Source: Alphaproteobacteria bacterium (GTDB lineage Bacteria; Patescibacteriota; Minisyncoccia; Phycocordibacterales; JABAAK01). Taken from it: a stretch of DNA of 64,000 nucleotides. The stretch lies in NCBI GenBank assembly GCA_030054135.1, contig JASGCN010000002.1:21484-85483 (forward strand), given 5' to 3'. The notes under the pieces are model-generated. The model was not told the origin of the DNA, made no database searches, and was given only the letters and a program-made list of their open reading frames with translations. Shown here piece after piece: positions 39,371 through 41,023 of the stretch (its first letter is position 1; each line of letters begins with the position of its first letter). The position numbers were made by a program, and so were the translations under genes.

Positions 39371-40828
39371 TAGAGTTTGATCCTAGCTCAGGATGAACGC
39401 TGGCGGTGTGGATAGGGCATGCAAGTCGAATGGGTTAGACCCATGGCAGACGAGATAGTACAAGGTAGGAACTTCCCTCTGAGTCGGGCATAACTCATCG
39501 AAAGATGAGATAATTCCCGATGGTCTCTACAATTAAGTTTGAGAGTAAAGATTTATCGCTTAGAGAAAGGCCTGCCCCGTATCAGCTTGTTGGTGAGGTA
39601 ATGGCTCACCAAGGCTATGACGCGTAGGGGAGCTGAGAGGCTGACCCCCATCGATGGAACTGAGACACGGTCCATACACCTACGGGTGGCTGCAGTCGAG
39701 AATATTCCGCAATGGACGAAAGTCTGACGGAGCGACACCGCGTGGTAGATGAAGCCCTTCGGGGTGTAAATACCTTTTATCTGGGAAGAAGTCATTGACG
39801 GTACCAGTTGAATAAGGGGCTCCAAACTCTGTGCCAGCAGGAGCGGTAATACAGAGGCCCCAAGCGTTATCCGGAATCACTGGGCGTAAAGGGTGTGTAG
39901 GTGGTTGTATTAGTCTTGTGTTAAATCTTCGAGCTCAACTCGAAACTCGCACAGGAAACGGTATGACTAGAGCATGTGAGAGGTGAGTGGAACTTATAGA
40001 GTAGGGGTGAAATCCGTTGATACTATGGGGAACACCAAAAGCGAAGGCAGCTCACTGGTACATTGCTGACACTGAAACACGAAAGCATGGGTAGCGAATG
40101 GGATTAGATACCCCAGTAGTCCATGCCCTAAACGTTGCTCGCTAGCCTTATGGGGATTTGACCCCCTATGTGGCGAAGCCAACGCGTTAAGCGAGCCGCC
40201 TGGGAAGTACGATCGCAAGATTAAAACTCAAAGGAATAGACGGGGACTCGCACAAGCGGTGGATTATGTGGCTTAATTCGTAGGTAAGCGAGAAACCTTA
40301 CCGAGATATAACTTTGCACGATTGTTTCCTGAAAGGGATTCGTTCTTCGGACGGGCAGAGAGTGATGCATGGCCGTCGTCAGTTCGTGACGTGAGTTGTT
40401 CCCTTCAGTGGGGTAACGAACGCAACCCTTATTGTCTGTTACAAGTGTCAGGCAAGACTGCTCTCTCACGAGAGAGGAAGGCGGGGATGACGCCAGGTCC
40501 GCATGTCCTTACAGATCTCGGGCTGCACACGTAATACAATGGTCGGTACAACAGGAAGTGAAGGAGTGATCCGGAACAAATCCTTATAAGCCGATCCCAG
40601 TCCAGATTGGTGTCTGAAATTCGACACCATGAAGTTGAAATCGCTAGTAATCCCAGATCAGCACGCTGGGGTGAATACGTTCTCGAGTCTTGTACTCACC
40701 GCCCGCCAAGTCAGGGAAGTTGAGAGAACCCAACGTACAGAGTTCTTCTGTCCTAAGGTTAATTCAATAACAAGGGCTAAGGCGTAACAAGGCACGGGTA
40801 GCGGAAGCTGCTCGTGGAATGTAATTAA
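39371..40828 (+). rRNA. rrs: 16S ribosomal RNA (~1.46 kb), 3' tail after h45 reads GAAUGUAAUUAAC and lacks CCUCC anti-SD
   Basis: 5' AGAGTTTGATCCTAGCTCAG; internal conserved 515/1390-type regions; h45 10-bp stem CACGGGUAGC-GGAA-GCUGCUCGUG; 3' end position approximate. Confidence 0.9.
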
Positions 40829-41023
40829 CTTTTGAGCAATCTGTAATAAGATTGTTTGGTCAAATGTCTTTACTTTATGTAAAGACAAGATAATAACACA
40901 ACATCTCTAAAGAGTGTTCGGTATAGCCCATACACGATAGGGTAGGAAAGAACGGGGTAAAAGTAAGTAGACGATATCATAGATTATTTTTTCTATACAA
41001 TATTGGATAACGCGAAACAAAAA

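Follow-up and report, generated by a model that had tools for sequence, protein, structure and literature searches.

The stretch of DNA analysed here, called the window throughout, comprises 64,000 nt of contig JASGCN010000002.1 (assembly GCA_030054135.1, positions 21,484 to 85,483 of the forward strand). It carries a 16S rRNA gene whose 3' end lacks the anti-Shine-Dalgarno (anti-SD, aSD) sequence, together with protein genes that lack Shine-Dalgarno (SD) motifs, about half of which have a recognizable extended -10 promoter element directly in front of the start codon. The 16S gene is full length, with 1465 nt on the plus strand (39365-40829), and is matched by the Rfam model RF00177 over model positions 1-1533 with 1316 bits and without truncation. 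For a residue-level alignment, the covariance model was re-run on the 3' part alone. The 3' strand of helix 44 (h44) ends in GGCGUAACAAGG (40781-40792) and is followed by helix 45 (h45; 40793-40816, plus strand), where CACGGGUAGC and GCUGCUCGUG enclose a GGAA loop and align to the h45 of the model with high posterior probability. This is exactly the normal h44 terminus and 10-bp h45 with GGAA loop that a sequence-only reading of the same DNA had described. The next 13 nt, the tail GAAUGUAAUUAAC (40817-40829, plus strand), align opposite the model's GAUCACCUCCUUU and replace GAUCACCUCCUUA, leaving no anti-SD. CCTCC, CCTC and CTCC have zero occurrences in 40700-41300, a span that extends beyond the terminator-like hairpin of the gene. 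The claim of the sequence-only reading that the tail is devoid of CCUCC is thus borne out by the covariance-model alignment.

The 16S gene is a self-contained unit with its own promoter, processing stem and terminator, all on the plus strand. The promoter, TTGACA-17-TATAGT (39127-39155), agrees with the consensus at 11 of 12 positions, and the promoters of this organism therefore follow the sigma-70 consensus. Leader and trailer of the pre-16S RNA can pair in a processing stem of 21 bp with one mismatch (39303-39324 with 40944-40965); the overall duplex has -86.6 kcal/mol, compared with -51.5 +/- 5.8 kcal/mol in shuffled sequences. Directly after the tail lies a weak trailer hairpin, GAGCAAUCU-GUAAUA-AGAUUGUUU (40834-40857; -10.5 kcal/mol, z -2.0), and the unit is closed by a terminator-like hairpin at 41014-41055 (-26.1 kcal/mol, z -8.7). 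With no copy of the three anti-SD strings as far as 41300, beyond the terminator, a canonical tail concealed by an insertion or intron is excluded: the transcript is bounded by promoter, processing stem and terminator, none of which comes with an anti-SD. It is nearly certain that the anti-SD is missing from the 16S gene of the window.

We regard it as extremely improbable that this absence is an artefact, arising from misassembly, from a pseudogene copy or from an intron or insertion between h45 and a canonical tail, with a functional CCUCC-bearing rrs gene elsewhere. Such an error would be favoured by the frequent insertions in candidate phyla radiation (CPR) 16S genes and by the fact that just 64 kb of the genome are visible. 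It is opposed by the full-length, high-scoring covariance match, by the complete transcription unit without any CCUCC and by the relatives treated below, 72 of 77 of which also have no aSD (among the matches listed). In addition, the Logan assemblies SRR23378604 and SRR23378605 share the groEL neighbourhood; those contigs end before the 16S gene.

The 23S and 5S genes lie at 12982-16152, so that the 16S gene is unlinked to them, 23 kb away with protein genes between. No 23S sequence was found in the 8-kb blocks around the 16S genes of relatives (0 of 120, among the matches listed; loci L003-L122). Domain I of the 23S rRNA has an insertion of ~24 nt relative to the bacterial large-subunit model (13302-13325, cuuugucgacaacgacaauaaaaa, by covariance-model alignment). 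The 16S gene itself diverges at two "universal" primer sites: its 341 region (39685-39693) reads GGCTGCAG, not GGCAGCAG, and its 515 region (39830-39851) reads CAGCAGGAGCGG, not CAGCAGCCGCGG. Standard primers would under-amplify such organisms.

The window has ~35% G+C and long intact open reading frames (ORFs) under code 11. Using a simple first-ATG rule, we took 59 non-overlapping ORFs as the gene set, 56 of them with an ATG start. An ORF for a sigma-70 family protein with regions 2 and 4 (51416-52131, minus strand) was left out of the gene statistics; its 5' end overlaps tRNA-Ile(GAT) at 52055-52131 on the same strand, and its true start is therefore probably downstream. Where independent Logan gene calls exist, 11 of them match the chosen starts exactly, and Pfam domains beginning at residues 2-5 anchor several starts, such as those of the genes for Mur ligase, RNase H, MsrA and the RRM protein. 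Pfam also confirms GroES, GroEL, SecD, SecF, LysS, UvrB, MsrB and PilM.

Upstream of these starts, SD motifs are essentially absent. Between positions -20 and -4, GGAGG was found in none of the 56 ATG-start genes, GGAG or GAGG likewise in none, and AGGA in one, while GGAG, GAGG and AGGA together precede 9.3% of internal ATGs, which served as control. The lack of any GGAGG-like motif that had been claimed for groES, groEL, secD and others thus holds across the 56 genes, and for this 64-kb sample it is nearly certain that the genes do without SD motifs.

What the upstream regions contain instead is a promoter element at a fixed distance. The pattern TAnnnT, ending 4-8 nt 5' of the ATG, is found in 30 of the 56 genes compared with 10.6% of internal ATGs (P=5e-14) and 16-21% of windows shifted upstream. 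Its extended form, TGnTAnnnT, is found at the same distance in 13 of 56 genes and at 1.0% of internal ATGs (P=5e-12). Expectation maximization (EM) on the upstream regions converges to GTGGTATAAT, which is the extended -10 ("-16 region") promoter, and the enriched upstream k-mers are TATACT, TATAAT, GTGGTA and TGGTAT. Scored with the position weight matrix (PWM) from EM, 28 of 56 genes exceed the 95th percentile of the control (2.8 expected) and 19 the 99th (0.6 expected); in windows shifted by 10-30 nt, only 6-8 of 56 score as high as the 28. In 19 of the 28 hits, 5-6 nt separate the element from the ATG. Promoter hits precede 20 of 140 ATG candidate starts and only 2 of 183 GTG or TTG candidates, and this tie to ATG is the AUG preference looked for in leaderless expression.

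It could be argued that such boxes are a by-product of AT-richness or of stop codons. Against this stand the controls at internal ATGs and in shifted windows, as well as the TG extension and the tie to ATG, and the idea was rejected. Intergenic distance also separates the genes: the element is present in 9 of the 14 genes situated 5-30 nt from the upstream gene and in none of the 5 that abut or overlap it (intergenic distance <=4 nt).

The best hit of the window, GTGGTATAAT with 12.3 bits, ends 6 nt before the ATG at 58933 (58917-58926, plus strand, as are the following unless stated). Others are TTGGTATAAT, 5 nt before the ATG at 1009 of a chorismate mutase-domain gene (994-1003; 10.2 bits); GTTGTATAAT on the minus strand, 5 nt before the ATG at 2667 (2673-2682; 10.5 bits); GTGGTATATT, 6 nt before the ATG at 5430 (5414-5423; 10.1 bits); and GTGGTATACT, 8 nt before the ATG at 29302 (29284-29293; 12.1 bits), which is TG-extended in the promoter scan as well and serves a start that agrees with a Logan gene call. 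The PWM also finds TTGCTATACT at 62872-62881, 6 nt before the ATG at 62888 of the RNase H gene, a start anchored by a Pfam match from residue 4. In two cases the start-proximal box is joined by a canonical -35 box at the right spacing: the thioredoxin-domain gene at 42653 has TTGACA-17-TAGTAT ending 5 nt before its ATG (42619-42647, from the promoter scan), and GTGGTACAAT, 6 nt before the ATG at 32190 of the LemA gene (32174-32183), belongs to TGGACA-16-TACAAT with TG, its -35 box being at 32156. The sequence-only reading had listed -10 boxes at eight starts. Those at 1009, 29302, 35778, 42653, 58933 and, on the minus strand, 2667 stand, whereas the box at 52547 is weak and the start at 17279 is a TTG, the in-frame ATG at 17300 having TATCAT 8 nt upstream.

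In two further cases, both among the nine element-bearing genes 5-30 nt from their neighbour, TATAAT takes its TAA from the stop codon that ends the preceding gene. The box at 8409-8414, within the element at 8405-8414, ends 5 nt before the ATG at 8420 and includes the stop of the Mur-ligase gene that lies upstream (intergenic distance 6 nt). The box at 59789-59794 belongs to TTGATATAAT (59785-59794), which ends 6 nt before the ATG at 59801 of a cupin gene and overlaps the upstream stop (intergenic distance 7 nt). Stop codon, promoter and start codon are extremely compact at both places, with the box 5-6 nt 5' of the next ATG.

Since the boxes occupy the position of an SD, 5-9 nt upstream, they might be read as a substitute for it, a new A/U-rich motif pairing with the tail GAAUGUAAUUAAC. 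The tail is indeed A/U-rich, and UAUAUU could pair with AAUGUA. Several observations make this very improbable. Duplexes between the tail and positions -22 to -1 average -2.5 kcal/mol, compared with -3.1 at internal ATGs and -2.8 in upstream-shifted windows (-52 to -31), and the enriched k-mers are not the reverse complement of the tail; both disfavour a new SD complementary to it. The motif is the sigma-70 extended -10 consensus and is unchanged in relatives with different tails (AAUAAUUCAA, AUUAAUUCC, ACAUAUCC). Finally, no compensating variant SD was found in any aSD-less organism by Amin 2018 (PMC6107228).

Not all genes follow the start-proximal pattern. The groES gene is an exception, with a promoter TTGACA-17-TATACT (30181-30209, plus strand, from the promoter scan) that ends 18 nt before its ATG at 30228 and predicts a leader of ~11 nt without an SD. 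For the paralogue pair at 41217 and 41954 and the VirD4-like genes at 44477 and 46826, the boxes lie 28-40 nt upstream; 41954, 44477 and 46826 are predicted to have short SD-less leaders of ~20-40 nt. The five tightly abutting genes without the element are probably translated by coupling. Three of them, candidates for termination and reinitiation, have a TAAtATG junction without a promoter or promoter-like element, namely groES/groEL (30518-30525, plus strand), msrB/msrA (4846-4852) and secF/M16 peptidase (27994-28000).

Some of these leadered genes are duplicates. The small genes at 41217-41789 and 41954-42523 are tandem paralogues with no Pfam hit, whose 5' regions (41062-41184 and 41858-41981) are 92-99% identical. 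Both have TATAAT ~40 nt upstream and an A-rich leader, and each is followed by a strong hairpin (41793-41823 and 42532-42564). The ATG of the first copy is mutated to ATA, and this copy may start at the next GTG (~41160). The 103-aa ORF at 44477-44788 is a truncated duplicate of the N-terminal part of the gene for a VirD4/TraG-like type IV coupling protein at 46826-48790; the segment 44436-44779 is 96-100% identical to 46785-47005 and 47519-47640, and the upstream region is common to both. Between the two copies, on the opposite strand, is an unannotatable ORF of 401 aa (45370-46575).

The leadered genes bear on a further explanation, that initiation does without an SD, in the manner of Bacteroidetes or cyanobacteria with S1-type or structure-dependent initiation, and takes place on A/U-rich leaders that are very short or unstructured. 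Transcription would then usually start a few to tens of nt upstream, and the -10-like boxes would in part be AT context, or else minor internal promoters. This would suit the composition of the upstream regions (~70% A+T), the promoters 18 nt upstream of groES and 28-40 nt upstream of three other genes, all without an SD, and the half of the genes that have no clear start-proximal box; where only 5-30 nt separate two genes, transcripts from upstream probably cover the second one too. Composition, however, explains neither the spacer peak at 5-6 nt nor the TG extension, the link to ATG or the corresponding peak in relatives, all of which are expected of promoters fixed to the start codon, and we consider such leaders unlikely as the general rule.

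To place the window, we used its 515-region signature GTGCCAGCAGGAGCGGTAATAC, which at least 120 GTDB species representatives share. Among the matches listed, nearly all carriers are labelled Paceibacterota, Parcubacteria, Kaiserbacteria, Nomurabacteria or Patescibacteria group, and a minority bear other submitter labels, e.g. Saccharibacteria. The top 16S identity is only 84% (OZ244939.1, a complete Paceibacterota chromosome of 641 kb, among the matches listed), and the window is therefore assigned to a divergent member, an ultra-small bacterium, of the class Paceibacteria in the CPR/Patescibacteria, a class represented in culture by Minisyncoccus archaeiphilus. Besides the 72 relatives without CCUCC, the 77 with a readable 16S 3' end include 5 that retain GAUCACCUCCUU or a near variant (among the matches listed). 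The relatives were picked by the 515 signature, itself a possible marker of the aSD-less subgroup, and this proportion is therefore no estimate for the Parcubacteria as a whole. With the aSD-less relatives the window shares the 16S signature of the lineage and a near-identical h45, which is nearly invariant across the 77 (among the matches listed).

The aSD-less tails of the relatives form a family (GAAUAAUUCAAUUUGAA, GAUUAAUUCCAAUUGGA, GAACAUAUCCAAUCGGAA, GAUUAACUCAAAUUGAG) with the consensus GAAUAAUUCAA. In these relatives the segment homologous to CUCC pairs with adjacent downstream sequence as UUCA/UGAA, CUCA/UGAG, UUCC/GGAA or UCC/GGA, the corresponding pair in aSD+ relatives being CUCCUU/AAGGAG. 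The resulting mini-hairpin has 3-6 bp (loci L003-L122, 26 nt following h45). All 4 pairs are present in 28 of 67 unique tails, compared with 14.2 +/- 2.3 when the 5' arms were swapped among sequences, a control that ignores phylogeny. Covariation was counted by a custom script because MAFFT had aligned the tails practically without gaps, which put the 3' arms of the hairpin out of register. The former aSD segment has thus been kept as one arm of a small pre-rRNA hairpin after the aSD sequence itself was lost, and this suggests that the mini-hairpin has a role in pre-rRNA maturation, separate from mRNA binding. The window tail is more diverged: it has neither the family tail GAAUAAUUC[A/C] nor the trailer-pairing mini-hairpin, lacking the near-invariant UC of the family and forming 0 of the 4 pairs. 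In the lineage of the window, even the mini-hairpin is gone.

A possible background to this divergence is Era, which recognizes GAUCACCUCC beside h45 and is absent from most CPR (PMC10582724; PMC12641178); its absence fits a relaxed constraint on the 16S tail. The clade has been reported to lack uL1, Era and Der (PMC9297842, PMC12641178). None of these three genes was found inside the 64-kb window, a result that speaks for the window only.

The promoter element was then compared between relatives with and without the aSD. The aSD-less set comprised 238 genes from 72 loci (among the matches listed). As the first aSD+ control, with 5 loci and 18-23 genes, was too small, we adopted a set of 350 genes from 120 CPR metagenome loci, retrieved by the pattern of h45 plus GGATCAYCTCCTT. 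In the aSD-less relatives, strict PWM hits number 21, 7, 5 and 4 at spacers of 6, 7, 8 and 9 nt, and ~0-1 elsewhere; in the aSD+ set, 8 hits at 6 nt stand out from 0-3 at other spacers. Promoter-like genes (spacer 5-9) thus make up 15.1% of the aSD-less set compared with 4.6% of the aSD+ set (P=1e-5). An SD 4-mer ending 4-10 nt before the ATG occurs in 6.7% of aSD-less genes and in 10.6% of aSD+ genes, with 4.6% at the control distance in each, so that the aSD+ set makes only modest use of SD, and per gene the two sets do not differ significantly in SD (P=0.14). From these comparisons, a weak dependence on SD and a share of leaderless genes would seem to predate the loss of the aSD in CPR, with the aSD-less clade as the extreme of a trend.

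Taken together, these observations make it probable that most genes of the window have a start-proximal extended -10 element and yield leaderless or nearly leaderless mRNAs, while abutting genes are reached by reinitiation and a few genes have SD-less leaders. This reading rests on position-specific sequence statistics and comparative conservation, from which we infer transcription starts at the AUG and ribosome loading there. The organism would have a single stand-alone 16S gene without an anti-SD, as most of its relatives do, and since the anti-SD has been lost, initiation cannot use SD:anti-SD pairing. Most genes would instead have their own sigma-70-type extended -10 promoters, the last T mostly lying 5-6 bp upstream of the ATG, a distance from which RNA polymerase is expected to begin on the A of the AUG or no more than a few nt from it. 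The ribosome would bind directly at the 5'-terminal AUG of the leaderless mRNA. Promoters inside the 3' end of the preceding gene imply nested transcripts with common 3' ends. A minority of genes would be translated by termination and reinitiation at TAAtATG, or from short A/U-rich leaders without an SD. The sequence-only reading had proposed leaderless initiation as the default; the absence of aSD and SD and the -10 elements abutting the starts, judged against controls, lend support to this proposal, with a recognizable element in only about half of the genes.

Several points weigh against so general a reading. Training and scoring of the PWM used one and the same set of 56 genes, the independent evidence being the internal-ATG and shifted-window controls and the genes of relatives, and the gene starts follow from the simple first-ATG rule. 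Only ~50% of genes have a recognizable element, and at least 5 have promoters 18-40 nt upstream or none found. Transcription might start 1-3 nt 5' of the AUG, chiefly in the 7 hits that lie 8-9 nt from it. A generic scan for two-hexamer promoters gave no enrichment (74 found, 78.7 expected in shuffles), and of its output the best hits alone were informative; the promoter signal resides only in position relative to start codons. The modest use of SD in the aSD+ set makes the contrast between the two groups one of degree. Lastly, 48 of the 56 genes (86%) have T at position -1, compared with 28% of internal ATGs (P=4e-18), but so do 65% of the genes of aSD+ CPR relatives (loci L123-L242). T at -1 is therefore no specific evidence of leaderless starts, and its use as a marker of them is weakened. 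It fits a start site with a pyrimidine at -1 and a purine at +1, and could reflect either a preference in transcription start sites or an effect of translational context.

Some other genes of the window are related to RNA. A glycine-rich protein with a eukaryote-type RRM domain is encoded at 3882-4310, and an RsmI-like TP_methylase at 43525-44217; RsmI methylates C1402 of the 16S rRNA near the decoding centre. The gene at 35778-38378 encodes a DEAD/Helicase_C protein with an N-terminal HNH motif.

The loss of the aSD is an already published trait of a subgroup of Parcubacteria, of which the window represents a divergent new member. Tsurumaki, Saito, Tomita & Kanai 2022 (RNA 28:1041; PMC9297842) detected CCTCCT at the 3' end of the 16S in as few as 48% of Parcubacteria, with an overlap between lineages without the aSD and the group lacking uL1. 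SD helices were thought not to form in this subgroup, and no initiation mechanism was offered (PMC9297842). Lineage and aSD loss are as in the window, but the upstream regions of genes were unanalysed in that study, whereas here the start-proximal extended -10 is seen in the window and in the 72 relatives. A literature search for leaderless mRNAs in Parcubacteria, Patescibacteria or CPR gave only a passing mention of YchF, most subscription journals being outside its reach. The layout of promoters at start codons is a known mechanism that appears to be undescribed for this clade.

Whether the pattern extends to the whole clade is a question on which we are evenly divided. The proposition would be that a class-level aSD-less clade of Paceibacteria uses leaderless mRNA as its main route of initiation, nearly every gene having its own extended -10 fixed 5-6 bp before the AUG, often lying inside the preceding gene and sometimes drawing on that gene's TAA stop for its TATAAT, and giving nested transcripts that end together at the 3' side, with the former aSD serving as an arm of a maturation hairpin. 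SD:anti-SD pairing is the textbook means of start selection in bacteria, and complete loss of the anti-SD from the 16S rRNA is rare; Paceibacteria are among the most species-rich and abundant groups of uncultured bacteria. If the proposition is true, gene callers that score ribosome-binding sites misplace starts in thousands of metagenome-assembled genomes, and models of operons and regulation in CPR need revision, as each gene would own a promoter. The clade, already known to have lost uL1, Era and Der, would also be a natural system for the requirements of SD-free initiation by bacterial ribosomes.

The window can be compared with several known systems. Amin 2018 counted 128 aSD-less taxa among ~20,600, the majority from Bacteroidetes, Mycoplasma and Carsonella. 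A 13-nt tail without CCUCC and a lack of SD enrichment are likewise seen in Chryseobacterium, Elizabethkingia, Riemerella, Blattabacterium, some Mycoplasma and Carsonella (PMC6107228). These bacteria belong to unrelated phyla, and a start-proximal -10 architecture is not reported for them in the literature examined. Lim in 2012 is also said to have described aSD-less bacteria such as Chryseobacterium and Carsonella. Bacteroidetes-type initiation, in which the aSD is present but sequestered, likewise goes with an absence of SD motifs and A/U-rich upstream regions. Most Bacteroidetes, however, retain CCUCC and have TAnnTTTG promoters unfixed to starts, whereas the 16S gene of the window has its aSD deleted and the promoters are of the sigma-70 consensus type. 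Retention of the aSD in the manner of Bacteroidetes can thus be set aside, as the 16S gene of the window has none.

Closer in promoter layout are organisms whose transcriptomes are rich in leaderless mRNAs, such as Deinococcus and haloarchaea. The "group C" genomes of GeneMarkS-2, a grouping reportedly made by Lomsadze in 2018, are said to be leaderless-rich too. A leaderless-rich transcriptome is also ascribed to Mycobacterium tuberculosis in a passage of PMC12641261 that cites Cortes 2013. All these likewise have the -10 at a fixed short distance, the 5'-terminal AUG as the entry point of the ribosome, and no SD on the genes concerned. They keep the anti-SD, however, as well as SD motifs on their leadered genes, whereas in the organism of the window the aSD is gone, and leaderless, coupled or leader-independent routes must therefore serve every gene.

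An organelle offers a further parallel. Mammalian mitochondrial mRNAs are leaderless or nearly so. The small-subunit rRNA of mammalian mitochondria also lacks an anti-SD (PMC10582724). The mitochondrion has a protein-rich ribosome and dedicated factors, and the parallel is one of analogy and not of homology. If the proposition for the whole clade is true, free-living-style bacteria would have a mitochondrion-like regime of initiation, possibly linked to the loss of Era and uL1.

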